Assembly: GCA_964619725.1 (NCBI GenBank)
Contig: CAZUFC010000068.1
Span: 1-45,136 of the forward strand
DNA: 45,136 nt
From: an uncultured bacterium
Lineage (GTDB): Bacteria; CSSED10-310; CAZUFC01
Direction: 5' to 3'
Shown here: piece by piece, positions 14,720-40,988 of the stretch
Layout of the letters: each line of letters begins with the position of its first letter
Position numbering within the stretch: position 1 is the stretch's first letter
Notes under the pieces: generated by a model
Told to the model about the DNA's origin: nothing
What the model saw: the letters and a program-made list of their open reading frames with translations, nothing else
Databases searched by the model: none
Translations under genes and position numbers: made by a program

Positions 14720-15925
14720 TCAGAGGACAGGCGCCAGTTGAAAATTCAGTCCCCAGGTAAAAGCCAGGGCCTGTTTTCCTGATTCGTAGGCCATAGCGAA
14801 ATCCGCCTGCATTTCTTTTCCTCCGAAACCCAGGCCTGCGCTGTAAACTAATTCGGCGCTTGATTCAGCAATATTTTTATTGATGCCGCCCCTCAGGAAA
14901 AGGCGGTTATCCAGGAAATTTTTTTCAGCGCCGAAGGCCAGTCTTCTGTCTTTAAAGGGTGGAGTAGCGGTATTATTGGAGTTCAGGTCGGCATCGAGAG
15001 ATACGGTAAAGTTTCCCGTTCTGTGATAGGCGGCGCCCAGCCGGAGGTGCCGGTCAGTCTGGAAAGAATTGCCGCCTTGCATTTTGAAGCGCGGCCGGTT
15101 CATATTTTTCCCTGAGAAGGCCAGTTGCAGTTCATTCCATTTATAAATAAGACCGAGGTCATAACTTACTGCAGAATCAGTGCGTTTATTTTCGTGGAAG
15201 AATTCGGATGAGCTGTATTCTTCTTCCCAGATATCCCACCGGTCGTAGTAGGTACTGGCTCTGGTCAGTCTGATTCCGATTCCGCATTGCAGTTCATGAG
15301 TCCATTCACCGGGCAAAACGCTGTAACCTGCGGAAAACAGAAGGTTGTTGCTCCAGATTCCGGCGGCTTCGACGGCTGACTGGTTGTTTCCGATGGAACC
15401 GGGGTCTTCTTCCGGATCGGTGGCGTTGATGTTTTCCAGGTCAACGTCAGGGATAACGCCGCCATAAATAACGGCATCGTAAGTCAGGGAGAAATTACGC
15501 CACATAAAACCAGCAGCGCCGGTAAGTTCAAGAGTAAAACCGGCGCCGGGTTCATCGATTTTTTCCAGGAGTCGTATCGTTTTAAAAACCAGTTCCGGAT
15601 TCCCGTACACTTCGGGATCATCGATATCCTTATCTTCCAACAAGTCCCAGAGGTCTTTTAAATTCTGGTAAATTCTTTTGTGCTGCTCGCCTCTCAGGCC
15701 GATCACGGGAAAGAAACCGCCTCCGTTTCCCAAGGCCAGGGCGGCAGGATTCCACAAGGGAGCTTCCGAATATCTCGGGCAGGCGGTAATCGCTCCGCCC
15801 ATAGCCGTTCCCCTGGCCCCAAAGGGCATATAGGGTTCTGACCGGCATAATTCGTACGAGGGACAAAGAAGAATCACAAACAAAGCGATCGATGCTGCTT
15901 TAACTTTACAGGAAATATTTTTCAT
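14720..15925 (-). CDS. Outer-membrane beta-barrel of the TraF_2/PorV/FadL-like clan
   Basis: Signal-like N-terminus; FGARGTAMGGA...LWNPAAL; amphipathic strands YDLGLIY, LRLGAAY, FLRGG, YSAGLGF. Confidence 0.75.
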   Translation of the reverse strand: MKNISCKVKAASIALFVILLCPSYELCRSEPYMPFGARGTAMGGAITACPRYSEAPLWNPAALALGNGGGFFPVIGLRGEQHKRIYQNLKDLWDLLEDKDIDDPEVYGNPELVFKTIRLLEKIDEPGAGFTLELTGAAGFMWRNFSLTYDAVIYGGVIPDVDLENINATDPEEDPGSIGNNQSAVEAAGIWSNNLLFSAGYSVLPGEWTHELQCGIGIRLTRASTYYDRWDIWEEEYSSSEFFHENKRTDSAVSYDLGLIYKWNELQLAFSGKNMNRPRFKMQGGNSFQTDRHLRLGAAYHRTGNFTVSLDADLNSNNTATPPFKDRRLAFGAEKNFLDNRLFLRGGINKNIAESSAELVYSAGLGFGGKEMQADFAMAYESGKQALAFTWGLNFQLAPVL

Positions 15926-16107
15926 TTTTTCGCGTGCAGAGAAGTACAATTAATGTTACCGGGAAATTTGAATCCGTTCGGCAAAAAATCGCCTTACCGG
16001 CCGGTGAACGGTATGAATCGTCTGATTTTTTCTCATTTCAGCTAAAACGAAGAACAGGGCAGGCGATGGACAATCATCTCATCATGCCCCGTCAACGTTT
16101 TAGCGCC

Positions 16108-25704: not shown

Positions 25705-27156
25705 ATGAATCGGTTTCAATGTGTGTTGGCGTTTTTGGCATTAGGGCTGATGTTTCAAGGTTTATCAGCGATTCAAGCGGAAGAATTTCCTGAAATTATG
25801 TTTATTCTGGATGCGTCCGGAAGCATGTGGGGAACGGCGGGCGGAGAAACCAAAATAGAAGCGGCCAGGAGGGTTTTCGACAGAATCGTACCCGAATTGC
25901 CGGCAGAGGTTAACTTGGGATTAACAGCGTACGGCCACAGAAGAAAAGGCGATTGCAGCGATATTGAAACCATCGTTTCCTGCGGCGCTGCAGAGAGAAA
26001 CATGTTATTGGATGAGGTGAGCAAACTGAATCCCAAAGGAATGACGCCGATTGCCGATGCGGTGAAATCAGTGACCGATGTTTTGAAAACAAAAGAAAAT
26101 GAAACCACCATCATCCTGGTGAGCGACGGAGAAGAAACCTGTCACGCAGACCCATGCGGAGTCGTCCGCTCGCTGAAATCTTCAGGCATAAAATTTATCC
26201 TTCATGTCGTGGGATTCGACGTCGATCATGTCCAGAAAGAACAACTGTCATGCCTGGCTGACGCAGGCGGCGGCGAATACTACGGAGCCGAAGATGCCGA
26301 ATCGCTGTTGATCGCGCTGGAATCGGTGAAAAGCGAAGTCGAAAAACAGGTCGAAAAAGCGAAAACAGTGAAAAAAAGCGTTACGACAAAAATAGGCAAA
26401 TTGCGATTATCTTTTCCTTTCGGAAGCGACATAAGCATCAATGAAATAAAAGTCATCAGAACTTCCGACAATAAAACAGTCAAAACGGTTGAAGACCCCG
26501 GCGCCGAATCTTTGCATCCCCTGCTTTCAGGCGAATATGAACTGCTCGTTGGATTTGCGAATCCGAATTATAAACCACCCACCGAAGTTTCCTTCGGGAC
26601 ATTTGAAATCAACGGCGGAGAAACGACAGATGTCGAAAACGGCGTTGTATCGTTCAACGTCGCCGAGTCATTGAATGAAATGTCCATAGCTGCAGTTACG
26701 GTCGCATCCGATATGCCTGACGGAGTTTCCGTCACTCTGGAATATCATGGAAACGATTATTACCTTTTTAAACCCAAACCCGTTCCGGCAGGGACCTATC
26801 ATTTCAGCATACTCTACAACCGCAGTCCGGAAGAAACGATCATAGCGGATAATATTCAAGTAAAAGCAGGAGAACAAAACGTCATTACCCTGGATTCAGG
26901 CATTATCCTGGTGCAACCCTCTGATGCCCTGGGCAGCGTCTCCGGCTGGAACCTCATACCGGCAGGCAACGAAAAACCGATACTCCAGGTCAGAAGACGT
27001 TGGGACAACCAGGAACCGCTCTGGAGACCGTTCGCTGTCCCCGAAGGAACTTATGATCTCCTTCTCATCTTAAAAGGAATGGATGAACCCCTGCCCGTCG
27101 GCGAAGGTATAGTCATTTCTGCAGGCGAATTGGCGGAGTTTGATTCGGGTTTCTGA
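25705..27156 (+). CDS. Secreted VWA-domain protein with beta-sandwich C-terminal repeats
   Basis: Signal peptide; MIDAS ILDASGSM, GMTPI, LVSDG, HVVGF; repeated GxY modules. Confidence 0.9.
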   Translation: MNRFQCVLAFLALGLMFQGLSAIQAEEFPEIMFILDASGSMWGTAGGETKIEAARRVFDRIVPELPAEVNLGLTAYGHRRKGDCSDIETIVSCGAAERNMLLDEVSKLNPKGMTPIADAVKSVTDVLKTKENETTIILVSDGEETCHADPCGVVRSLKSSGIKFILHVVGFDVDHVQKEQLSCLADAGGGEYYGAEDAESLLIALESVKSEVEKQVEKAKTVKKSVTTKIGKLRLSFPFGSDISINEIKVIRTSDNKTVKTVEDPGAESLHPLLSGEYELLVGFANPNYKPPTEVSFGTFEINGGETTDVENGVVSFNVAESLNEMSIAAVTVASDMPDGVSVTLEYHGNDYYLFKPKPVPAGTYHFSILYNRSPEETIIADNIQVKAGEQNVITLDSGIILVQPSDALGSVSGWNLIPAGNEKPILQVRRRWDNQEPLWRPFAVPEGTYDLLLILKGMDEPLPVGEGIVISAGELAEFDSGF

Positions 27157-27886: not shown

Positions 27887-29638
27887 ATGAAGTGCAGGCA
27901 AATATTTTTTGTCGCCTTTTTCTTTCTTTTTTTTCAGATAGCGGTCGATTCGGCATTGGGAGATGCCCAGAAGCCGGATTGGGCCATCGGCAACAGTTAC
28001 ACTTTTAATCTTAACATAGAAGCTTCTGCGGTATTTGACGGCGGGAGTATCGATCTGACGTGCTGGTCGGACAGCATACCATATTCAGTAACGGGCATGG
28101 ACGTCAAAACTTTGACTCACGGCAGTCAGGCGACACATGAAGTTTATATTCTTGAATATTCGGGCGGCATATCGGCTTCGGGAACAGCGAACATAACGGA
28201 CCCCATTCAATTGAATGCACCGGTGGAACTGCGCAACGCTTCTATTGACGGCGAGGTGTGGATAAGGACGTCTGACCTGGCCACTGTCAAATACTACAGG
28301 CATATCACGGGTGAATGCTGGGTCAAGCCTTTGTTCGTTTGGCAGTATGCGGGCCCTACGGAAATATGGGAAAACGAAGAATATGATCCTCCTACTCAAG
28401 ACATCTATTTCCCGGCATCAGTCGGTGACGTCTGGACGAACTATTTGACGATTTATGCTTTCGGTCATACTTATGCGGACCTGGAAGTATTCGGCATTCC
28501 TTTTTTAATAGATGAAGATTTCGACGACAGCCAGGATTTCATGTTCGAATCAAGCACGCTTTTGCAGGAATGGATGAATTCCTGCTGGTCCTATAAGGCG
28601 TATCATGCGGATTCATTATCCGATGCGGCAGAGACTTACTGGTATTGTCCGGAATCGCTCTGGTTTTCAAAATTTTTAATTCAGAATTTAGTGATCGGCG
28701 ACAGCGGATTAAACGTTGAAGGAGTGGAAATGAACCTGGTGAATTACAGCGTAACGACGGCGACGCCTGGACCAACGGACACGCCGACACAGGCTCCAAC
28801 GTCGACGCCGACTCTGACCCCGACGCAACCGCCGACATTAACCTATACGCCCACACAGGAATCGACAGCGACAGATACGCCCACAGCGATCCTTACGGAT
28901 ACGCCGTCTGCGACGCCGACTCATACGCCAACGGGGAATCCCACAGCGACCCCGACAGAACCGCCTCCCCCAACATCAACGCCCACCTTAACCCCCACCG
29001 AACCCACGGCTCCCACATCGACTCCCACATTAACTCCAACTGAACCGCCGTTTCCTACATCCACGCCGACCAGAACACCGACGGAGATACCCACAGAATC
29101 GCCGGAACCGACTTTCAGTCCCACTTCGACTTATACGAATACGCCTCCGCCCACCAGGACGCCGACCAGGACGCCGACAGATTATCCCACTATCCAGAGC
29201 ACGCCGTCTGCCACTCCCTATATTCCCACGACTCCATCAATCACGCCGACTTATATTTTTACCATGGTCCCAACAACGACTCCTGAACCTTTCACCGGCG
29301 TTCGAATAAGACTGAACAGCACGTATTTCACTCCCGGAGATTACTTCGATCTTAAAGTTCTTCTCGGAAACGAAGGCACTACGCGAGACGTGGACCTTTA
29401 CGTACTCCTCGAAGTTTACGGCCAATTCTGGTTCTATCCCAACTGGACACAGGAGCTGGACAGTTATCCGACATACCTGAGAAGAGGATTCTCGCTGCTG
29501 GATATTCTTGCTTTTGAATGGCCTGACGTCCCGGACGCCGCCACCGGATTGCATTTTATCTCCGCGGTTACTCAGCGTAATAATTTCAATATCATTGGCG
29601 AATACGACATGATCGAATGGGGATTCGGTCCTTATTGA
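27887..29638 (+). CDS. Secreted protein: beta-rich N-domain, long Pro/Thr linker, conserved C-terminal domain
   Basis: GAGGGAGG RBS; signal peptide; about 180-aa P/T tract; C-terminal domain homologous to that at 34936-35280. Confidence 0.9.
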
Positions 29639-30064
29639 CGCAAAAAACATACTATCCCGCTTTCTCTTATGACAAAATGATTCTCCCGTTACGAAAAGTG
29701 AATTTATAAAATCCTGAACTCCCGAAATTACGTCAGAAAAAATTGTAAATAGTCTGATGAAACTGAAACCAGACAATCGATCATAGTATTTATAAAGTAA
29801 AGCTCCTGAGGCTTCGGCATTGGGACAAGAGAGACAATTCATTATATTTAAATAAAAAAACATTAAAAATGTATTCGTTATAGTAATCGTTGTCGGGCCG
29901 TAACTCCGACCCTTGACATTAATGAATTTAATTTTTAGTCTTTCCATTGAGTTAGCGTATTTGACGTCTCCGGAGCACGTCAGCGAACGCGATGAATTGT
30001 GTGAGACGTCGCTTTTCCTGATTTGAATAAGTCCCTGGATAAAAACGGGTTACGATAAAAGGCA

Positions 30065-31579
30065 ATGATTCCCTATACTATTCGAAAAATAATCGAGGTT
30101 TTCAACACGCCCTTGATGTTTGTTCTGACGACTCTAACGCTGTTGATCATACTGTTTTCGGCTTTTGCAGGTTATTCGATGCACGCGGTGAACATATTAA
30201 ACAACCCGCTGCCTGTGAACTATGGAGAAGGAACCTTGCTGAATCTCTGCGTGGAGCTGGCAGAGAAGGGCAATTACTATTGGGACATACATGAATATCC
30301 CTTTATTCACGGGGCATATCCGCCGGTTTTCATGCTGGCATCGTCTCCGCTCATTAAAATGTTCGGCCCCAGGTTCATAACAGGCCGGATTCTGTCGATC
30401 CTGGCTACCATACTGATCGCTCTCATTATATATCGAAAAGTGCGGGGATATTCGCAAAACTCTCTTCTTGCCGTCATCTTCGGACTGTTCGTTTTTACGC
30501 CTAATTTCGTATATGAATTTTCGCCGTTAATGAGAGTGGACATGCCGGCCATTTTGTTCAGCCTGCTGGGACTTTATTTTTACTTCAGGTACAAACCCAA
30601 AAATTCACCCGCCAGATTCCTTTGTCACATCTTTTTTATACTCGGCTTTTACACCAAGCAAAACGCACTGGCCGCTCCCCTGGCGCTGTTCGCCTGGCTG
30701 GCGTTAGTTGAACGAGACTGGAAGGAAATGTTCCTCAACTTGAGTTTATACCTGGCGCCGTTGCTGGGAATTTTTCTGATATACAACCAATCGACGGACG
30801 GAGAATTTTACCGGCATACGATTCCCTATATGGAATTTTACGAGATCAATTACTCCTTTTCACTGGCCTGTTACTGGAGTTTCATCAAACGGACCTGGCT
30901 GCTTTTGATTTTATCCGCGGTTTCTTTATTTCAATTCAGAAGGCTGAACATTTACACGTTTTATTTCCTTTTCGCTTTCATTTTTCTGGTCACTATCGGA
31001 AAAGCCGGCGCCTACATCAATTACTTTATAGAACCTTTTCTGGCGCTCCTCATTCTCAGCGCTTTTTCTGCTCATGATTTTTCAGGTTTCATAAAAAGAA
31101 ACGCTTTTTTCACGTTATTGAACGTCATTTTAATAGTGACCGCCCTGCAACTCATGCCGTCCTTCAACAAATACCAGGATGCCTGGGAAAGGATCACAGA
31201 CGCAAAATATGGAATCATGCAGGAAAAACAACTGGAGGCGACGCGGTATCTGCTGAATCTTTTCGAGGGAGAAGTCATCGCCGAAGAAATGGGTCACCTG
31301 CTGATCAGCGGCAAGGAAGTGATTTTCGAACCTTTTCAATTCCAGCAGATGGCCGAACAGGGACTATGGGACCCTTCCGTTCTGATTCAGGACTGCTTTG
31401 AAGAAAAATTTCCCATTATTCTATCCGGTAGAATCATCGAATCCATGCCCGGGATGACCGACTGCATCAAGAAGCATTATTTTGAACTGCGTCCTCATTC
31501 GAAAATTTACGTACTGAAAAAATACAAGGAAAAAATCTGTACAGACCCTTACCTCAAGAATTTGAAGATATGTCGATAA
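30065..31579 (+). CDS. GT-C-fold membrane glycosyltransferase (ArnT/PMT_2-like)
   Basis: YGEG, YPPVF, GRILS, RVD, YTKQN, GKAGAYINYFIE; many TM helices. Confidence 0.8.
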   Translation: MIPYTIRKIIEVFNTPLMFVLTTLTLLIILFSAFAGYSMHAVNILNNPLPVNYGEGTLLNLCVELAEKGNYYWDIHEYPFIHGAYPPVFMLASSPLIKMFGPRFITGRILSILATILIALIIYRKVRGYSQNSLLAVIFGLFVFTPNFVYEFSPLMRVDMPAILFSLLGLYFYFRYKPKNSPARFLCHIFFILGFYTKQNALAAPLALFAWLALVERDWKEMFLNLSLYLAPLLGIFLIYNQSTDGEFYRHTIPYMEFYEINYSFSLACYWSFIKRTWLLLILSAVSLFQFRRLNIYTFYFLFAFIFLVTIGKAGAYINYFIEPFLALLILSAFSAHDFSGFIKRNAFFTLLNVILIVTALQLMPSFNKYQDAWERITDAKYGIMQEKQLEATRYLLNLFEGEVIAEEMGHLLISGKEVIFEPFQFQQMAEQGLWDPSVLIQDCFEEKFPIILSGRIIESMPGMTDCIKKHYFELRPHSKIYVLKKYKEKICTDPYLKNLKICR

Positions 31580-31986
31580 AGCGGCGTATGTTCAAGCAGG
31601 CGAAATGCCTGTAATCCCGGCGGAATGTTTCGAATTAAAAGCGCCGAGCATTCACAGACGTATCGGACATCCATATTCGCTTCAGAGATTAGCCGGGGGG
31701 ACCTGACCTTCCGAAAACGGTTTTGATGCGGTTCTGTTCCGTAATTTGGATTCATTCGAAATAATTTGTATAATGGGAAGCGTCGGTTTTTAACCGAAGG
31801 GTAGACGGAAAGCTGAAAAATTCATCATGACGATAAATCAAATATTTTTATGGCTGCATGCCTGTCCCTGCATATCCTCCCGGAGGACATCGAAAATGTG
31901 CGAGACATCATCGCTGCCGGATTATTTCGAACCGCGGTTTTGGGATATGTCGGCATCAGAACTCAATATTTTTCAGGAGAAATAAA

Positions 31987-34900
31987 ATGACGAGAAAACT
32001 GAGCATATTGATTACACTTTTTATTCTATTGTGCTGGAGTTATTCTGCGGCATTCGATGCGCCGGATGCGGAATGGGAATCGATACGTGAAATGCAGATT
32101 CACAGGCCGGAGATGCTAGTGTCGCCGACAGGCGCTTTTCATTCATATAAAGAAGGTCTGGGGTGGAATAAGCCGGTCTGGATTGAATTTTTGAACCGTT
32201 ACGGCGATCAATGGGACATATCGATCGATCATCGGAGCGGCAGGCCGGATTTGATTCAGGGCAGCGGTATTCCCTGGATTCCGGGAGATGGAAACGATCT
32301 GGGGGAAGAGTATCTGGATCAGTATGGCCTTGAAGCCGGCGAAGTTCCTGATCCTGCTTTTTTTGAATATTTAGCGTTGCGATTCATAGATGAACATTCG
32401 GGACTCTTTAAAGCGGACAGGGAACAGATCAAATTCGACGAGCAGGGTTCCTATTTCAGCGAACGATACGTATCGCTGCGATTTACACAGAAATATAAAG
32501 GCACAAGAGTATGGAAGAGTCATTTATTTTTTCGGATAAACAACGGGAATCTGATCCAGTTCGGCAGTCATTTTTTTGAAAACGTGACATGTTCAGCAGA
32601 GTCGGAAATAGGTTCTGAGGAGGCTTTCGACAGATTACGGCGCTATCTTTCTCAGCGGTTGCCGGGAGAATATTACATAGTGAGGCCGATAGAAAAGATG
32701 TTCGTCCCTGTCGCTTCAGAAGGAAAAGATTACAAGGCGGGAGAACCGTTCGAAGGGGAAGAGGGAACCGGCTATGATCACAAGCTGGTATACGAGTTGT
32801 ATATAGGAAGCGAGACCAGTTCGATAATCTGGCATGCGCTGACGGACGCTCATACGGGCGAGCTCTTGATATTGCAGGATGCCCGGAAGTTCGGCGTGGT
32901 TCAGGGTGGAATATATCCCGTGACGAACAGCGAACCGGAAGTAATTCGTTCATTTCCTTATGCGGCGGTCAGCAACAACGGGACGAAGACAGCGGACCTG
33001 GGCGGCAATTATTTTTACGACGGCGGCATGACAAGCTGCAATTTAAATGGATTATATGTCCGAATCAGTGACTCCTGCGGAACAGTCGATTTATCGAATT
33101 CCTTTTATCCCGGGAATCTGAATTTCGGGTCGGGAGCCGGAACGGACTGCTCAACGCCCGGTTTCGGAGGCGGCGGTAACACTCACACGTCTCGAAGCTG
33201 TTTTTATCTGATGAACTGGATGAAGGAAAAGATAAGGTATTATCAGCCTGGATTAGCTTATTGGGTGGACGGGAAGTTGAGGGCGAACGGAAACATCAAC
33301 AGCACCTGCAATGCTTACTGGGACGGAAGCAGCGTTAATTTTTACAAATCCGGCGGAGGCTGTTCCAACACGGGCGAACTTGCGGCAGTGATACTCCATG
33401 AAACGTCTCATGGACTGGACGATCACGATCAGAACGGGTTCTCGGCCGACGAAGGTTCCGGGGAAGCGTACGCGGATACGGGAGCTTTTTTGATGACTCA
33501 TTCGTCCTGTATCGGTCACAATTTCAGACCTGGAGTTCCCTGCAGTTTAGGATGCGATTCGAGTTGCACGGGTGTTCGTGATGTTGATACTGCAGAAGAT
33601 GTAACAGTTTGGAACATCGAATCGTCTCCGGCGGATTGCGACCGTTGGAGCTGCCCTTATTGGGGGTATATGGGACCCATGGGATATGAGGGGCATTGTG
33701 AGAGTCTGATAGCGAGCCAGGCCTGGTGGGATGCGATAAAAGCGGTGCGCAACGAAGTAGGCGATGATACGGGATGGGTCTGGGCCGACAGACTCTGGTA
33801 TATTGGACTGGCCGTGTTCGACAGGGCTTACCAGTTGGTTTCGGGCGGACGCTGCAATCCCGGCGCGCAGGTGAACGGCTGCAACAGCGACAGTTATTAT
33901 AACGTTTTACTGGGTATCGACGACGATGACGGAAATCTGGCTAACGGCACACCTCATGGCTGCAGAATCTGGGAGCAATTCAACGCTCACGGAATAGCAT
34001 GCGGCATGCAACCTCAATGTTTTTCCTCCTGTCCGTCCGTAGGAAGGCCTGAAATTGAAGCATTCAGTACGGGCGGAGCGGCCATGATAACCTGGGAAGA
34101 AGTCGCCGGAGCCGATTCATACGAAATATTCCGTAACGACATCGGATGCGATTACGGCTGGTTCCCCATGGGCATCGTCGACTCGACATTCTGGCCTGAT
34201 CATGAAGTCGCCGTAGACAGAACGTATTTTTACGCTGTCCAGGCCATCGGTGAAGATACGGATTGTCGAGGACAAATCTCCGAATGCGAATCCGTCGTCA
34301 TTATCGCCGGTCCGACTAATACTCCAGGTCCGCCCACGAATACGCCCACCATTACCCCTACGCCCACTCCCAGTCCCTGCATCTGGGCCGGATTCAATCC
34401 GCTCGAAAATCCCGTGGACGATAACCGCTACGACAATACCACCTACTTCTACGATGACGGAGATGGAACCGGCAGCGTCAACGAAAACGGCGTTTTGACG
34501 GGCTGGTCTGTTAAAGCCATGGCTGCTGGTCAAATAGCTCTGCGTATCATCAGACCCCTGGCAGGAAACCAATACTCCTTCGTCGGCGGTTCGCAAATGG
34601 TCAATGTCTCCTACGGCTTCAACGACTTTCCCGATTCGCTCAATATTCCCGTCCAACAAGGTGATATCGCCGCTCTCTATTATCCCGCCGGTAATGCTGA
34701 AATCGGACTGAACGGATCAAACGATTATTTGTGGTTTTACGAAGGCGACGTTGCTGATACGGTCACCTTCACCAGAGGAGGAAATTCTTCCCGAAACGGC
34801 TACCAGCTAGTCAGAATCTACGGCGACTGCGACGGTACTCCAACACCCACTCCAACGCCGACTCCTACAGCAACATCCGATACTATGCCTACCATAACGC

Positions 34901-35280
34901 CCTCTCCCGAACCCACTGAAAATTATCTCCCCGATGAACTATGCATGGTCCTGGAACTCAACCAGTCCCTATATACCGAAAACGACCCTTTCAAACTGAC
35001 TTGCCGCTACTTTAACCCCGATACCCCCGAACTCCTGCAGCAGTTCATTATCCTGGATTGCAACGGCCTCCTGTTCTTCTGGCCCTCCTGGTCATCCTTC
35101 GTCGATTATGAATACTTATTCCCCGTTCAAAACGTCTGGACCCAGGATACTATTCTCGATTTCATCTGGCCCGAAAACTCCGGAGCCGCCGACGGCCTGG
35201 TTTTCTTTGGAGCTTTCCTCGATCCGGGCGATATGACTCTGGCGTGCGATATCGCTTCCGCTGAGTTCGGTTTCAATTAG
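31987..35280 (+). CDS. Secreted M4/M36-like zinc metalloprotease with propeptide, FN3-like domain, P/T linkers and conserved C-terminal domain
   Basis: ATG 31987 after CAGGAG; signal peptide; FTP/PepSY-like RFTQKYKGTRV and DAHTGELL; CNAYWDG, HETSH, GEAYAD; TYFYAVQA. Confidence 0.9.
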   Translation: MTRKLSILITLFILLCWSYSAAFDAPDAEWESIREMQIHRPEMLVSPTGAFHSYKEGLGWNKPVWIEFLNRYGDQWDISIDHRSGRPDLIQGSGIPWIPGDGNDLGEEYLDQYGLEAGEVPDPAFFEYLALRFIDEHSGLFKADREQIKFDEQGSYFSERYVSLRFTQKYKGTRVWKSHLFFRINNGNLIQFGSHFFENVTCSAESEIGSEEAFDRLRRYLSQRLPGEYYIVRPIEKMFVPVASEGKDYKAGEPFEGEEGTGYDHKLVYELYIGSETSSIIWHALTDAHTGELLILQDARKFGVVQGGIYPVTNSEPEVIRSFPYAAVSNNGTKTADLGGNYFYDGGMTSCNLNGLYVRISDSCGTVDLSNSFYPGNLNFGSGAGTDCSTPGFGGGGNTHTSRSCFYLMNWMKEKIRYYQPGLAYWVDGKLRANGNINSTCNAYWDGSSVNFYKSGGGCSNTGELAAVILHETSHGLDDHDQNGFSADEGSGEAYADTGAFLMTHSSCIGHNFRPGVPCSLGCDSSCTGVRDVDTAEDVTVWNIESSPADCDRWSCPYWGYMGPMGYEGHCESLIASQAWWDAIKAVRNEVGDDTGWVWADRLWYIGLAVFDRAYQLVSGGRCNPGAQVNGCNSDSYYNVLLGIDDDDGNLANGTPHGCRIWEQFNAHGIACGMQPQCFSSCPSVGRPEIEAFSTGGAAMITWEEVAGADSYEIFRNDIGCDYGWFPMGIVDSTFWPDHEVAVDRTYFYAVQAIGEDTDCRGQISECESVVIIAGPTNTPGPPTNTPTITPTPTPSPCIWAGFNPLENPVDDNRYDNTTYFYDDGDGTGSVNENGVLTGWSVKAMAAGQIALRIIRPLAGNQYSFVGGSQMVNVSYGFNDFPDSLNIPVQQGDIAALYYPAGNAEIGLNGSNDYLWFYEGDVADTVTFTRGGNSSRNGYQLVRIYGDCDGTPTPTPTPTPTATSDTMPTITPSPEPTENYLPDELCMVLELNQSLYTENDPFKLTCRYFNPDTPELLQQFIILDCNGLLFFWPSWSSFVDYEYLFPVQNVWTQDTILDFIWPENSGAADGLVFFGAFLDPGDMTLACDIASAEFGFN

Positions 35281-35721: not shown

Positions 35722-37137
35722 ATGACTGAAAAAATTGAAACAATCGCCTGCGATATTTATTCACGCTATTCGCATGCCTCGGAAATTCTCGATATTCTGA
35801 TGAAATCCGTTTCTCGCCCCCTTGTTCTCGACGTCGGAGGCCAACAAAATTTTTTAAAACGTTTCCGGCGGCAATACCAGGTGATTATTGCGGATACGTC
35901 GCCCTTGTCGAAACAATCGGCCGTTCAGGCCGACGGACTCCATTTGCCGTTCAAAGATAATTGCTTCGATGCCGCAGTCAGCCTGGATACTCTGGAACAT
36001 ATAGCGCCTCGGTCAAGAGAAACATTCATCAGCGAGTTGATAAGAACGACTAAAAAATACGTTGTTCTCAGTTGTCCGGTAAATTCCGCGGAGGCGGTTA
36101 AGGCCGAAAACCTTCTGGCTGAATTGTATTCAGGGATAACGGACCAGTCTCATGCTTTTCTGAAGGAACATAGCGAAACAGGCCTGCCACAACTCGAACA
36201 AATAGAAAAAATCGCCCGGAAATTGGAGTACAAAGCCTCCTTCCAACCCTCATTTTTCCTGCCACATTGGTTCATCATCATGACGCTGCAACTCGCATTG
36301 GAAACGCTGCCCTTCGGCAATCCACTGATAAAGGAATTCAACGCTTTTTACAACAGATGTTTTCTGAAACGAGACAGACGCATACCGGCCTATCGTTACA
36401 TGATCATCCTTCATCCGGAACAGGAATCGCTCGAACTTCCGGGAACGCTCCCGGATAAATCGAACTCTTACGATCCGCTTTTCAATAAATCAAGATCACT
36501 AATAGAAAAACTCATCGACTATTGCAAAAACGCCATAGAAACGAAAAAGTTATACGAGGAGATAAAAACCGGTTCCGGGTTCGAGAAAGCCTTTCGTGAT
36601 TTGCAGTCTTACTGCAGACGGGTGCATGAAGAGAAGGAGGCCCTGGAAAAGGAAAACAAGCGAATCTACGTTGATTTTACAGGGTTGAGCGAAACTTATG
36701 CTGAATTGAAAAAAGCCTACGAAAGACTGGAAAAGCATATTCAGGAATTGAGCGAACAGAATGAGCTGATATTTAATCACCGCACATCGCTGGAGAAGAC
36801 ATACGACCGGTTTGCTGAGAGATATAAATCGTTGGAAAAGGAGCATGCCCGCGTTTCTGAAAGCCGTGAGGAGTTAGAAAATCGATTACAGGAGAAGGAC
36901 AAGGAGATACGGAATCACAAGAGTCATATAAAGCAGGTAGAGGATTTTATTGAAAAGGAACGGGCTGATCACAGGGAAAAACTGTTGCGGCTCGAAAAAT
37001 TGACCGGCGAATACGTCGAACTGTCCGGTTACACAAGTAAACTGAAGGAACAACTTGACAGAAAAACAGAACATGCGAAGGAACTGGAAGATTACGTTCA
37101 TGAATTATTGTCGAAGCTTCGCCGTTATGATTCATAG
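35722..37137 (+). CDS. Class I SAM methyltransferase fused to a long C-terminal coiled coil (WbdD-like architecture)
   Basis: VLDVGG, LPFKDNCFDAAVSLDTLEHI; about 190 aa of E/K/L-rich heptads. Confidence 0.85.
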   Translation: MTEKIETIACDIYSRYSHASEILDILMKSVSRPLVLDVGGQQNFLKRFRRQYQVIIADTSPLSKQSAVQADGLHLPFKDNCFDAAVSLDTLEHIAPRSRETFISELIRTTKKYVVLSCPVNSAEAVKAENLLAELYSGITDQSHAFLKEHSETGLPQLEQIEKIARKLEYKASFQPSFFLPHWFIIMTLQLALETLPFGNPLIKEFNAFYNRCFLKRDRRIPAYRYMIILHPEQESLELPGTLPDKSNSYDPLFNKSRSLIEKLIDYCKNAIETKKLYEEIKTGSGFEKAFRDLQSYCRRVHEEKEALEKENKRIYVDFTGLSETYAELKKAYERLEKHIQELSEQNELIFNHRTSLEKTYDRFAERYKSLEKEHARVSESREELENRLQEKDKEIRNHKSHIKQVEDFIEKERADHREKLLRLEKLTGEYVELSGYTSKLKEQLDRKTEHAKELEDYVHELLSKLRRYDS

Positions 37138-37149
37138 AGGATGTGACAA

Positions 37150-39555
37150 ATGAGCAGAGCGCTGATATTCGGATTATGTCCATTGCCGTTTGAAAATACG
37201 ATTAAATCTTTCGGACCCGGCATAAGGGTCTGGCAATTCATTCAACCTTTATTAAAAGCCGGTCATGAACCGGCATTGGCGGCTTTCCGCATACCCGGGA
37301 CTTATCCTCGCACGATTGATCCGATTGTATTCACCGACCGTTGGGGGTTTCCTTACTGGTCGATGGATCAACAGCTTTTTGAGAACCGCAAGCATATAGA
37401 AGAGATTTACAGAAAATTCAGGCCTGACGTCATTCTTGCCTGCACTATTTTCAGCACAAAAGCGCCGATCATGCTTCAGCCGAAGGAACCTTTGTGGATA
37501 GACCTTTTCGGCCATGTAATGGCGGAAGCACAGGCTAAAGCCTACCGGTACGACGATGATTCTTACCTTTATCATTTCTGGAGTTATGAGCGGGAAGCGA
37601 TATGCAACGGAGACGTATTTTCATCGGTTTCGGAATCGCAAAGGCATGCGACCATCGGCGAATTAGGGGCTATGGGGCGACTGAATCGTCTGACCACGGG
37701 ATATGAATTCGTTTATTCGATTCCCTGCGGCGTTGAAAATTCTCCTTACGAACATGACAGGAAAGTTCTTCGGGGATTAGATGTTGATGAGGATGATTTC
37801 GTCGTTTTGTGGAGCGGCGGTTATAACACCTGGACGGACATCGACACGTTGTTCCAGGGTATTGAAATTGCTATGTCCCGAAACCCCAGGATCAAATTCG
37901 TCTCTACCGGCGGCATGATTGACGGACATGATGAAAAAACTTACCCGGCCTTTCTGAAGCTGATAGAGGCTTCTTCTTATCGGGAACGTTTCATTATGAA
38001 AGGTTGGGTGCCGAAACAGGACGTTCACAATTATTACTTTGAATCGAATGTCGGCATAAATATCGATAAATTCATGTATGAAGGTATGTTCGGAAGCAAA
38101 AACAGGGTTCTGGACTGGATGAGAGCAGGATTGCCGGCCCTGGTGGGTGAATTGTGCGAATTATCCCTGATGCTTGAAAGTCAGGAAATAGGATTTAAAT
38201 ATCCCTTGGGAAAACCGGAAATGCTGGCTGAAAAAATAATCGAGCTTTCGCTGAACAAAGATTATGTGGCTCAGGTCGGAAAACAGGCGCTTCAATACGC
38301 CATGGAACATTTAACATTTGAAAAAACGGTCCAGCCGTTCCTTCAATGGATGGAAAAAGCCGAACCAGCCCCTGATAGATACGTCCAGATTAATTTCGTG
38401 CAACCCTCCATGTATTCCCCGAATAAGAACGATGAATGCGGAACGTCGAACAAGGCCGCTGCATCCCTGCGCCGTGAATTGATCCAAAAGAAACGCCAGA
38501 TCGATCAAATCGAACATTACGTCAGACATATAGAAAACGAATTAAGAAAAAGAGACCGTTTTTCATCCAAGGAACTGCTCTATCTCGCAGCGGTAAAATT
38601 CAAAAGAAGATTTCAAAATGTTAAATGCGCTCAAGCCCTGCCCTTCAGCGCTTTGCCGGAAACGCCAAAGGTATCGGTCGTTATTCCCCATTACAATGGA
38701 GCCTCTTATATCAGGGGCTGTCTTCAGTCGGTTCAGGCATCCGGCTGGGCAAACTACGAAATCATAGTCGTCGATGATGCTTCTGAAGACGAGTCCCTGA
38801 CGATCATCAGAAATGAATTTCCAACAGTTAAAGTAATGAGAAACGAAAAAAATATGGGATTCGCCGCTTCCTGCAACAGAGGCATTCGAGAAGCCGGCGG
38901 CCGCATAATCATATTGCTGAACCAGGATACGATCGTGGGGCCGGACTTCATTGAACAGATGGCGAAACAACTGATGCTGAATCCGCTGACAGGCATCGCC
39001 GGAGCAAAATTATATCAGGAGGACGGTCATACTCTGCAACATGCCGGAGGCATTCTGCACGATAATGCTCTGACCGATCACAGGGGCGCCGGCGAGACGG
39101 ATGACGGAAAATATCAGGAGATCGCCGACGTCGATTACGTCACGGGCGCTGCCATGGGTTTCCGGACAGAACTGATTGAACGTATCGGTCTGCTTGATGA
39201 AGGTTACAGGCCGGCCTATTTTGAAGAACTCGATTTTTGCCGGCGTACCGTTGATGAAGGCTTCAGAGTCGTCTTCCTGCCCCAGGCGGCCGCCGTTCAC
39301 TTTGAATCCGTCGTCAGCGGCAAACTTTCGAAAAAATTCCTCAACCGATACCATAAAAACCGTATACGTTACGTGCTGAAAAATTACGGTTTAAAAGAAA
39401 TGGCGACCCGTTTTCTGAAAGCCGAAGTTAAATGGCTCGTTAAAGCCAAACCGAAAGATCATATTCCCGCGCTGCTTAAGGCCTACATCATTAATTTGGT
39501 CCTACTGCCCGAAACCTTTGCTGCCCGCTTCTCGTCAGGAGCGTGGCGAAGATGA
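37150..39555 (+). CDS. Bifunctional glycosyltransferase: GT-B (GT4-like), short coiled coil, GT2
   Basis: WSGGYNTWTD, RVLDWMRAGLP; KVSVVIPHYN, IIVVDDAS, NMGFAASCNRG, LLNQD, YVTGAAM, YFEELDFC. Confidence 0.9.
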   Translation: MSRALIFGLCPLPFENTIKSFGPGIRVWQFIQPLLKAGHEPALAAFRIPGTYPRTIDPIVFTDRWGFPYWSMDQQLFENRKHIEEIYRKFRPDVILACTIFSTKAPIMLQPKEPLWIDLFGHVMAEAQAKAYRYDDDSYLYHFWSYEREAICNGDVFSSVSESQRHATIGELGAMGRLNRLTTGYEFVYSIPCGVENSPYEHDRKVLRGLDVDEDDFVVLWSGGYNTWTDIDTLFQGIEIAMSRNPRIKFVSTGGMIDGHDEKTYPAFLKLIEASSYRERFIMKGWVPKQDVHNYYFESNVGINIDKFMYEGMFGSKNRVLDWMRAGLPALVGELCELSLMLESQEIGFKYPLGKPEMLAEKIIELSLNKDYVAQVGKQALQYAMEHLTFEKTVQPFLQWMEKAEPAPDRYVQINFVQPSMYSPNKNDECGTSNKAAASLRRELIQKKRQIDQIEHYVRHIENELRKRDRFSSKELLYLAAVKFKRRFQNVKCAQALPFSALPETPKVSVVIPHYNGASYIRGCLQSVQASGWANYEIIVVDDASEDESLTIIRNEFPTVKVMRNEKNMGFAASCNRGIREAGGRIIILLNQDTIVGPDFIEQMAKQLMLNPLTGIAGAKLYQEDGHTLQHAGGILHDNALTDHRGAGETDDGKYQEIADVDYVTGAAMGFRTELIERIGLLDEGYRPAYFEELDFCRRTVDEGFRVVFLPQAAAVHFESVVSGKLSKKFLNRYHKNRIRYVLKNYGLKEMATRFLKAEVKWLVKAKPKDHIPALLKAYIINLVLLPETFAARFSSGAWRR

Positions 39556-40988
39556 AAAACATACTGGTACTCGGCATGTGTCCCCTTCCCGGAGACAACG
39601 AAACCCAAACCATAGGTCCGGGAAAAAGAACCTGGCAGTTCGTCAAAACGCTGCTCGATCACGGTCATCATGTCTGCCTCATCGCCAGCAGGCATAAAGG
39701 CGCCTACACGGAAAGAAAACATCCCCGCATTGCGGCGGAAACTCACGATTCCCTCATACGCTACACCGTAGACCAGGAAATATTTGAAAATAGAAAATGG
39801 ATACAGCATATCCACGATAACTTCAGACCCGACGTCGTTCTGGGCGCTACCGTTTATCCCTCCTATATCGCCTGCGGCCTCAATACCGATAAACCCATCT
39901 GGGCCGATCTCTTCGGACACATTATGGCTGAAGCGCAAACCAAATGCAGACTCTTCGACGACGATTTCTACCTCCTGAGATTCTGGAACTATGAACAAAG
40001 AGTCATCGATAAAGCCGATATATTCTCCGTCGTCTCAAATCCCCAATTGCAAGCCACCATTGGAGAACTCGGCATTAGAGGACGACTCAACAAACGATCC
40101 GCAGGTTACTCCTTCATCAGGCTCATACCCTGCGCCGTCGATCTCGAAGCCTACGACAAATTAAAAATTGATGATAATTCCGTGATTGACCTGGAATGCC
40201 AAGACGACGATTTCATCGTCTCCTGGAGCGGAGGCTATAATACCTGGACTGACGTCGAAACGCTCTTCTGTGCACTCGAAAACGCCATGGCTCAAAATAA
40301 CTCCATTAAATTCCTCTCCACTGGCGGGGCCATCGGAGGACACGATGAGTTCACATACCCCCACTTCCTGGAACTCATAAATGCCTCCGTCTGTCGTGAT
40401 AACTTCATCATGAAAGGATGGATTCCTCATGAACTCGTCCCCGCTCACTGGAGACGCTCACACGTCGGTATCAATATTGACCGTATGTCATACGAAGCCG
40501 TCCTCGGCTCTAGAAACAGAATACTCGATTGGATGGGCGTTAAACTTCCTGTAATAACCACTAAAGTCTGCGAATTAACTGAAATTATGGAAGAAAAAAA
40601 GCTGGGGCTTACCTTTGAACCCGAAAAAGCCGATGTTCTCACCAATCTCCTTCTCAACGCCGCTCGGGATAAAAATGAACTCAAACGCTACGCTGAACGT
40701 GCCTACCGATACGCGCAGGAAAAATTTACCTTTGAAGCCACCACACAGCCCCTTCTGGAATGGCTGGAAAATCCTGCAGCAGCGCCGGATAAAAACCGCA
40801 GAGTCGATCTCCCCGGCGCCGGCATAAAAAAAACCAGAATCCTCCGAAGCCACTATATCGCCTCATTGAGAAACACCTACATGAGAGAGGGTCCCATCGG
40901 CACCGTCAAGTGGGCTGTCGACAGGATCAAAGAGGAAATTATCCGAAGAAAAAAATTGATAAGGAAAGATTCCTCTTTCGGTTTTTGA
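39552..40988 (+). CDS. GT-B (GT4-like) glycosyltransferase, paralog of the upstream N-terminal domain
   Basis: ATGA overlap with upstream stop; DLFGHIMAEAQ, WSGGYNTWTD, RILDWMGVKLP. Confidence 0.88.
   Translation: MKNILVLGMCPLPGDNETQTIGPGKRTWQFVKTLLDHGHHVCLIASRHKGAYTERKHPRIAAETHDSLIRYTVDQEIFENRKWIQHIHDNFRPDVVLGATVYPSYIACGLNTDKPIWADLFGHIMAEAQTKCRLFDDDFYLLRFWNYEQRVIDKADIFSVVSNPQLQATIGELGIRGRLNKRSAGYSFIRLIPCAVDLEAYDKLKIDDNSVIDLECQDDDFIVSWSGGYNTWTDVETLFCALENAMAQNNSIKFLSTGGAIGGHDEFTYPHFLELINASVCRDNFIMKGWIPHELVPAHWRRSHVGINIDRMSYEAVLGSRNRILDWMGVKLPVITTKVCELTEIMEEKKLGLTFEPEKADVLTNLLLNAARDKNELKRYAERAYRYAQEKFTFEATTQPLLEWLENPAAAPDKNRRVDLPGAGIKKTRILRSHYIASLRNTYMREGPIGTVKWAVDRIKEEIIRRKKLIRKDSSFGF

Follow-up and report, generated by a model that had tools for sequence, protein, structure and literature searches.

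An immunoglobulin-like C-terminal domain family of the uncultured phylum CSSED10-310 as a candidate cell-surface targeting module

Two secreted proteins with different bodies, encoded on one contig of an uncultured CSSED10-310 bacterium, end in the same small domain, and relatives of this domain cap more than two hundred further proteins of the same genome. The window, meaning the whole 45,136-nucleotide stretch that was analysed, is positions 1 to 45,136 of contig CAZUFC010000068.1 (assembly GCA_964619725.1). An earlier note made from its letters had proposed that the shared C-terminal domain (CTD) is a new sorting or anchoring signal. We read the CTD, with moderate confidence, as an undescribed immunoglobulin-like (Ig-like) module that targets proteins to the cell surface or retains them there. 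An address or anchor is suggested by its near-strict terminal position, by the Sec signals, stalk-like linkers and surface-type cargo that accompany it, and by its roughly constant share of the proteome. It is also suggested by the fact that the CTD is mutually exclusive and interchangeable with a bona fide sorting signal and gives way to another terminal module in a sister lineage.

The two window proteins carry homologous C-terminal domains of about 112 residues. Gene 1 (27887-29638, plus strand) encodes a secreted protein of 583 amino acids (aa) with a signal-peptide-like N-terminus, a body of about 260 aa, a 179-aa proline/threonine-rich (P/T) linker read from the translation (28754-29290, plus strand), and CTD copy 1 (29291-29635, plus strand; delimited by BLASTP and profile), whose end lies 3 residues short of the stop codon. 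Gene 2 (31987-35280, plus strand) encodes a 1097-aa secreted metalloprotease laid out as signal peptide, protease body, fn3-like region, P/T linker, a middle domain of about 170 aa, a second P/T linker and the CTD. This last linker, 34 aa by translation, occupies 34834-34935 (plus strand) directly before CTD copy 2 (34936-35277, plus strand; BLASTP and AlphaFold2), which reaches the last residue before the stop. In a single BLASTP comparison the two copies matched at 29 of 109 positions with one gap (43.5 bits, E 1e-11), and copy 1 matched a profile of 32 family sequences at E 4.8e-37. Neither protein has a C-terminal hydrophobic helix, and the domain is predicted to be all-beta. The earlier note's account of the architecture, a shared terminus behind P/T linkers on two Sec-exported proteins lacking a C-terminal transmembrane helix, thus holds.

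Its name for gene 2 also stands. The HExxH motif reads HETSHG, and residues 143-298, an M36-like propeptide region, weakly match NF038113, the model of type IX secretion system (T9SS)-dependent M36 metallopeptidases (E 3.6e-6; 25.4 bits against a cut-off of 885), so that metalloprotease is a reasonable assignment on sequence grounds. From the ATG at 31987 the N-terminus is signal-peptide-like (MTRKLSILITLFILLCWSYSAAF); the frame is open further upstream to an ATG at 31858 (plus strand), which would give 1140 aa. The body of gene 1 belongs to no Pfam or NCBIfam family and clusters with those of four other CTD-bearing paralogues in its own genome.

The window copies are two members of a large and divergent family. 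Their genome comprises 9.17 Mb in 344 contigs, is 90.9% complete with 6.5% contamination, and yielded 29,561 open reading frames (ORFs) under a crude call that took the longest start and a minimum of 60 aa. A profile of the two window domains gave at least 150 matches on the contigs, with 150 of 248 first-look candidates scored. Iterated hmmsearch on the ORFs returned 213, 218, 218 and 218 domains and so converged, on 217 ORFs; that the two-sequence profile alone retrieved 213 domains puts the likeness of the window copies beyond chance. Bearers range from 90 to 2016 aa (median 710) and make up about 3% of the genome's ORFs, a share of the proteome that stays roughly constant across genomes of 2.6-9.2 Mb. 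Any two CTDs have a median identity of 27.5% (5th-95th percentile, 18.5-40%), which indicates an old, divergent family and no recent burst. The domain sits almost strictly at the end of its protein: 203 of the 218 copies finish 0-5 aa from the stop codon, 7 finish 6-20 aa from it, 3 at 21-100 aa and 5 at more than 100 aa.

CTD bearers look like exported proteins whose terminal domain stands on a stalk. We scored N-termini with a permissive, home-made signal-peptide heuristic, whose figures are a contrast and not rates: among bearers 250 aa or longer, 173 of 208 passed, against 1292 of 3948 other ORFs. Lipoprotein-like bearers number only eight. The 40 aa ahead of the CTD are 19% threonine and 19% proline, compared with 5.5% and 4.9% genome-wide, and a linker of at least 15 aa rich in proline, threonine or serine (P/T/S) precedes the domain in 137 of 205 bearers (median 41 aa, maximum 403). 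Linker and domain join in a pattern of the form (P/T)n-P-[ED]-L-G-V-x-L-x-[LM]-[PN].

The cargo is diverse and of a kind typical of extracellular or surface proteins, judging by its Pfam families. Single-linkage clustering split 203 cargo regions into 94 clusters, 72 of them singletons and the largest with 68 members. Pfam families were recognised in 21 of 57 cargo segments and 30 of 48 full-length proteins. They include peptidases (C25 with its propeptide in 6 of the 48 full-length proteins, M14, C1, S9, InhA-like MAM and neprosin), repeat or adhesin-like domains (beta-helix/PMP repeats, PKD, FG-GAP, Kelch, BNR/sortilin and the lamin-tail domain LTD) and other enzymes (GH114, soluble glucose dehydrogenase, PGA_cap, 5'-nucleotidase, FGE-sulfatase and AhpC/TSA). 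The profile search of the genome therefore gave what the earlier note had named as support: many near-strictly C-terminal copies on signal-peptide proteins with diverse cargo.

Some bodies belong to families that are named for their variable ends. Searching NCBIfam with 48 bearers identified choice-of-anchor domains of type J in two and type Q in one; one J and the Q reached their cut-offs, and the other J scored 29.1 bits against 30. The name is used for body domains that stand ahead of differing C-terminal anchors. Among public family members one is called 'choice-of-anchor J domain-containing protein [candidate division CSSED10-310 bacterium]' and another 'hypothetical protein'. Two passages of PMC11878542 hold no definition of 'choice-of-anchor'.

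C25 gingipain-like peptidases are strongly expanded in this phylum as a matter in its own right. They occur in all 14 phylum genomes sampled. The genome of the window has 26 matches; of the 13 others, 11 have 8-16 each, G002 has 2 and G004 has 1. Most of those examined have a C25 propeptide, and many end in the CTD. Among the own-genome matches listed, about half share an open frame with a CTD; the PorU-like ones, discussed below, do not.

Related proteins carry either the CTD or a membrane-type sorting signal in the same position. The closest paralogue of the window protease, 61% identical over 959 aa, has no CTD. Behind a long P/T linker its sequence closes with ...PPVPAAG, a hydrophobic helix and RRKK. 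The corresponding tripartite pattern, [IV]-P-[AST]-x4-G plus a membrane helix plus a basic tail, occurs in 173 of 6725 own-genome ORFs of at least 150 aa (for example G000:C92:16848-21464, minus strand) and once in a shuffled-tail control. None of the 173 carries a CTD, and 120 of them have a P/T/S linker 15 aa or longer. For 75 of the 203 CTD cargo regions a homologue exists among the 173 (alignment of at least 200 aa, E <1e-20, identity up to 68%). Comparing paralogous cargo therefore shows related bodies bearing one signal or the other, each behind a similar stalk.

The tripartite tail looks like an unmodelled sorting signal of an 'IPA-CTERM' type. PEP-CTERM and LPXTG-type models matched these tails weakly and generically, with the PEP-CTERM cut-off reached in 1 of 16 tails scanned. 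The genome has one exosortase-family gene (G000:C134:13003-13455, minus strand; 35.5 bits), which adjoins a tripartite-tail gene. The CTD resembles the signals of the PEP-CTERM/exosortase and LPXTG/sortase systems in taking the same C-terminal slot after a P/T linker, in alternating with such a signal on paralogous cargo, and in the choice-of-anchor domains of some of its cargo. It differs from them in being a globular, all-beta domain of 112 aa to which no sortase-type enzyme can be assigned.

A second exchange appears between lineages. We sampled 401 genomes, 14 of them from the phylum (the window's own and 13 others) and 387 from outside it. Homologues of the window protease are present in 13 of the 14 phylum genomes. 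In CTD-positive relatives the orthologues, at 42-60% identity, share their open frames with a CTD (for example G003:C103, G008:C7, G006:C20 and G012:C283). In the CTD-negative genome G001, three of six protease homologues end instead in a different common domain of about 110 aa (...GERQV.DTG.CP; for example L064:3836-4195), matched 19 times in G001 and not at all in four other genomes. This domain is unrelated to the CTD (hhalign probability 1.9%), and its AlphaFold model is of low confidence (mean pLDDT 53.5). Sequence comparison thus suggests that the C-terminal module of these proteases has been swapped between lineages.

These observations fit a module that directs localisation and stays attached. 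In the mechanism we propose, an N-terminal signal peptide would carry the protein through Sec, the CTD would fold autonomously, and a common envelope component would recognise it, be this a surface glycan or a protein acting as receptor or shuttle. The enzyme or adhesin body would then be held at the surface on an extended, probably glycosylated, P/T stalk. The CTD and the exosortase-type tripartite signal would in that case serve as two mutually exclusive C-terminal 'anchors' in one genome. An export signal, an anchor and a dock cannot be told apart in silico; we favour retention or docking over a cleaved signal because a stalk makes sense only if the domain remains attached, and because the CTD is, in rare cases, also N-terminal or internal. 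Non-covalent surface retention has its model in dockerin and SLH modules. Like them, the CTD is mostly C-terminal yet tolerated elsewhere, follows P/T linkers, is found on diverse enzymes and exists in many copies; unlike them, it has an Ig-like all-beta fold and no Pfam match, and a cohesin-like partner or scaffold was not identified.

The CTD is predicted with high confidence to be a compact beta sandwich. The 32-sequence alignment has three conserved motifs, L-x-L-N-Q..F..GD.F.L.....N.G, Y.ILDVYG.YWF.P.W and IL.F.WP..AG...GL.FW.A, and closes with F-G-[YF] placed 1-3 residues ahead of the stop. From this alignment AlphaFold2 gave an eight-strand Ig-like sandwich with mean pLDDT 98.0 and pTM 0.88. 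The best Foldseek matches (best E 6.5e-4) were the RbmA FnIII domain, FnIII-like domains of GH3 enzymes, complement MG domains, CARDB and a porphyran-binding module. Comparison by VIA-align with 48,161 chains peaked at Z 10.8 for the N-terminal domain of a dextranase, followed at Z 8-10 by many unrelated proteins. T9SS C-terminal domains do not figure among the 49-50 rows listed for each of the three fold searches. By this modelling the CTD is in the Ig-like (E-set-type) fold class, a statement of fold class and not of family membership, given Z scores of 8.7-10.8 over 94-102 aligned residues that stand little above a background of Z 7-8. The earlier note had asked for a predicted structure and a Foldseek search, and what these brought back were generic Ig-like sandwiches, with no confident match to a characterised domain. 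The model superposes on CARDB, FnIII and other Ig-like (E-set-type) domains; it shares no sequence-level membership with those families, which are not position-restricted address modules.

A fold of this kind is also compatible with a ligand-binding domain. The CTD might be a carbohydrate-binding-module-like, ligand-binding or adhesion module for an environmental substrate or for cells, with no sorting role. Its fold matches, at Z 8-11, include carbohydrate-binding modules, CARDB (3idu, Z 8.7-8.9) and accessory domains of glycosidases; the Wzt carbohydrate-binding domain superposes at Z 8.4-9.4, and the carbohydrate-binding module 8wae gives a weak Foldseek match (E 1.5e-3) without a sequence match. 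Conserved aromatic residues lie in or near predicted loops (YWF-x-P-x-W and F-x-W-P), and the few N-terminal or internal CTDs are usual for binding modules. We nevertheless consider a pure binding role improbable. It is hard to see which one substrate specificity could serve bearers as different as proteases, peroxiredoxin-like proteins, nucleotidases, dehydrogenases and repeat proteins of adhesin-like type. A localisation role is suggested by the strictly C-terminal place of 93% of copies and by mutual exclusivity with a membrane-type signal on paralogous cargo. Binding to the cell's own surface glycan, for its part, would belong to the explanation by surface retention.

Two further readings of the sandwich strike us as very improbable. 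In one, CTDs would self-associate into an extracellular matrix or surface lattice, as in the biofilm scaffold RbmA, whose FnIII domain is among the best folds (E 6.5e-4, query TM-score 0.65-0.68, Z 9.3-10.0); the hundreds of copies per genome would suit such a lattice. The RbmA match is, however, no better than those to many unrelated Ig-like domains, and CTD pairs share only a median identity of 27.5%. In the other, the CTD would do no more than support structure or folding, as a stabilising Ig cap or as an intramolecular chaperone of the kind that ends some secreted proteases, and would be devoid of address information. That so many bearers are peptidases, and that the fold is a generic beta sandwich, accords with such a role; the long flexible linkers to unrelated folds and the exchange of the domain for a membrane-helix sorting signal on paralogues do not, which leaves this idea about as doubtful as the lattice.

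The most serious competitor to surface retention is a cleavable secretion signal. C-terminal sorting domains of the T9SS are beta-sandwich domains of Bacteroidota and allied phyla. By analogy, the CTD would be recognised in the periplasm, would bring its protein across the outer membrane and would be removed by a sortase-like peptidase. Like the T9SS type A domains (TIGR04183/PF18962), the CTD is a beta sandwich at the extreme C-terminus of Sec-exported proteins, exists in dozens to hundreds of copies per genome, is lineage-restricted and has diverse hydrolase and adhesin cargo that includes C25. The near-strict terminal position (203 of 218), the Ig-like fold and the T9SS-like cargo (C25 with propeptide, M36-like, M14, beta-helix and PKD) all suit such a signal, as do distant PorU-like proteins in some phylum genomes and PorV/PorQ-like barrels in all 14. 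T9SS is moreover common among the bacteria sampled, with SprA (TIGR04189) in 129 of the 387 genomes outside the phylum.

The translocon itself was not found. SprA was found neither in any of the 14 phylum genomes nor in the four outside genomes with a distant CTD. The model matched 129 of 401 genomes, all outside the phylum and 89 of them over its cut-off, so the negative result in the phylum is meaningful within a genome completeness of 60-96%. PF14349 and PorV proper (NF033710) had no match in the window's own genome. Nor did TIGR04183 match there, or PF18962 in that genome and five others of the phylum, although for these two sorting-domain models the control genomes gave no match either. 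Unlike T9SS domains, the CTD is about 112 aa long with eight strands, usually follows a long P/T stalk, is occasionally N-terminal or internal, and shows no sequence match to either T9SS model. Long stalks and N-terminal or internal copies are unexpected of a cleavable signal, and the junction has no strong conserved cleavage motif beyond the mild L-G-V-x-L. We regard the cleavable signal as a possibility to be taken seriously but unlikely. GldM (TIGR03517) was tried as a test for the T9SS motor and set aside, as the model is too narrow outside Bacteroidota (2 of 401 genomes, against 129 for SprA).

Other known systems were likewise not recovered. The PEP-CTERM model PF07589 had no match in five genomes, and dockerin and SLH Pfam models matched neither the window proteins (E <=0.1) nor the 32 family members (E <=10). 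The earlier note had been unable to place the motif with T9SS domains, dockerins or SLH proteins, and the Pfam and NCBIfam searches agree with it.

Several observations weigh against surface targeting or retention. Fifteen of the 218 domains end more than 5 aa short of the C-terminus. Among these exceptions, two proteins have the CTD right behind the signal peptide (SP-CTD-...-FGE-sulfatase and SP-CTD-5'-nucleotidase, SP being the signal peptide), one is built as FGE-sulfatase-CTD-FGE-sulfatase, one has two CTD copies, and a neprosin-CTD protein has a further 130-aa domain behind the CTD. Of the 208 bearers, 35 fail the crude signal-peptide test, many of these having hydrophobic N-termini by eye or clearly mis-started ORFs, and the crude ORF call did misplace some starts. 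The generic Ig-like model does not indicate a function and would suit a binding module just as well.

Machinery is the other weak point, as none could be tied to the CTD. The earlier note had looked to phyletic profiling for a co-occurring apparatus, and on this count the 14 phylum genomes, 11 positive and 3 negative, gave it no backing; profiling over so few genomes is weak. The window holds a PorV/PorQ-like outer-membrane beta-barrel of the TraF_2 / PorV-PorQ superfamily (14723-15949, minus strand; PF13729 E 1.9e-16; NCBIfam PorV_fam E 6e-12, 45.8 bits against a cut-off of 90). All 14 phylum genomes, the CTD-negative ones too, have such barrels, likewise below cut-off. Outside its own genome the window's barrel is matched best in CTD-negative G001, so as a partner of the CTD it is phyletically unsupported. 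PorU-like proteins of the C25 family, about 1030-1100 aa and without a CTD, score about 229 bits to the T9SS sortase model NF033707 (positions 63-739 of 1095; cut-off 420). The own genome has two (G000:C69:23988-27278 and G000:C70:1692-4958, both plus strand). They occur in 8 of 14 phylum genomes, G003 included, and were not found in five CTD-positive genomes, which counts against a dedicated CTD sortase. A PorU-like protein not found in five CTD-positive genomes and a barrel that does not track the CTD also detract from the cleavable signal.

A more specific form of the targeting idea is tentative. The CTD could be the address tag of an undescribed sorting or secretion pathway, read by outer-membrane machinery that perhaps recruited PorU-like or PorV-like proteins; we think this rather unlikely. 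If it were true, the system would span more than one lineage, since at least one other has the distant tag, at 27-31 matches per genome.

The CTD is restricted to a few uncultured lineages. Ten of the 13 other phylum genomes, in families f4, f6 and f7, have 57 to more than 114 copies each; G001, G002 and G004 have none, and neither do 27 sampled genomes of other phyla. Across all 401 genomes, matches at E <=1e-5 occur in 11 of 14 within the phylum and 4 of 387 elsewhere, and very strong matches at E <=1e-30 in 10 of 401, all within the phylum. The earlier note had expected a lineage-specific tag for export, anchoring or docking; the tag reading gained support in silico, and 'lineage-specific' has to be softened in view of the weaker relatives in those four outside genomes. 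These are three genomes of family f47 (G053, G221 and G371) and one of f51 (G057), with E values of 1e-8 to 1e-13 and, on full scoring, 31, 27 and 27 matches in f47 and 4 in G057. At 16 outside loci, 13 of 17 domain matches end no more than 13 aa from the stop. At these loci the distant form keeps the core ...DvYvAlE.nG.l.FWP.W, lacks P/T linkers and has equally diverse cargo (AhpC/TSA, PQQ propeller, caspase and DUF362); its proteins are publicly named 'hypothetical protein [bacterium]'. The earlier note also held that a confident match to a characterised domain, few copies genome-wide or frequent internal occurrence would speak against a tag. No such match emerged, copies are many, and only 8 of the 218 domains stand more than 20 aa away from the C-terminus.

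Wider searches covered species genomes and public cluster representatives. The single narrow pattern D[VI][YW]G[SE]YWF, taken from a five-sequence alignment, hit 21 loci in 185,579 species genomes: 8 in CSSED10-310 metagenome-assembled genomes (MAGs), 12 in MAGs labelled 'uncultured bacterium' or 'bacterium' and 1 in a 'Gracilibacteria' MAG. The 1.84 billion cluster representatives contain 2474 matches at E <=1e-3, or 1921 at the stricter E <=1e-10, and 146 of the best 150 are C-terminal. The CTD protein on the 'Gracilibacteria' contig has a very long P/T linker. A GC content of 48% and long ORFs that are open in code 11 fit this label poorly, and the contig is probably mis-binned or its MAG mislabelled.

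The AhpC/TSA bodies make a separate observation. Fused to the CTD, these peroxiredoxin or thiol-disulfide oxidoreductase-like domains occur in two neighbouring genes of the genome that holds the window and again in f47, the distant lineage (G221), and a CTD-tagged exported redox enzyme thus appears to be conserved between the two.

As a category C-terminal sorting and anchoring is well known; this family itself is new to Pfam and NCBIfam. It is absent from the Pfam copy we searched, from Pfam 38.1 as reached through the ESM Atlas, and from NCBIfam 20.0. The window proteins, as domains or whole, match no Pfam family at E <=0.1, the 32 family members have no relevant Pfam match at E <=10, and both window CTDs match no NCBIfam model at E <=1, the M36 model being gene 2's sole NCBIfam match. 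The ESM Atlas returned unnamed clusters alone, with a low query recognition value, and of two word-index homologue searches one returned the query itself and the other 11 unnamed proteins. A profile search of PDB sequences matched only the YWTD propellers of LRP2 and LRP6 (best E 4.3e-4), which we read as a resemblance at the YWF-x-P-x-W motif and not as homology, since the CTD model is a sandwich. Literature on CSSED10-310, on PorU2/PorV2 and the 'type IX sorting system', and on choice-of-anchor domains yielded no description of the CTD. PMC8248873 presents the phylum as rare, uncultured and, by prediction, Gram-negative; it does not mention the domain.

The family offers a handle on the surface biology of a phylum seen only through metagenomes. 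C-terminal sorting domains shape how bacteria build their surfaces and are useful annotation handles for uncultured phyla. With one CTD profile, 57 to more than 200 proteins in each genome would be annotated as exported or displayed on the surface, proteins that are now 'hypothetical' or named by their body domain. The CTD occurs in lineages without a detectable T9SS translocon, the one system known to read folded C-terminal domains, and the family may thus point to unknown envelope machinery. T9SS-like cargo in that setting, alternating between the CTD and an exosortase-type signal, makes a comparative system for how cargo is assigned to surface pathways. Being small and predicted to fold alone (pLDDT 98), the domain should be easy to express for binding, pull-down and structural work.

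The remaining genes around the two bearers include several glycosyltransferases. Directly upstream of gene 1 lies a secreted VWA-domain protein (25705-27156, plus strand) with a beta-rich C-terminal half and no CTD. Between the two CTD genes sits a PMT_2-type GT-C glycosyltransferase (30065-31579, plus strand), which was considered as a CTD partner and set aside, being matched in its own genome alone. Downstream, 35722-40988 (plus strand) holds a methyltransferase/coiled-coil gene, a GT1-GT2 fusion and a GT4 gene. Glycosylation of the P/T linkers by these window glycosyltransferases is a speculation.

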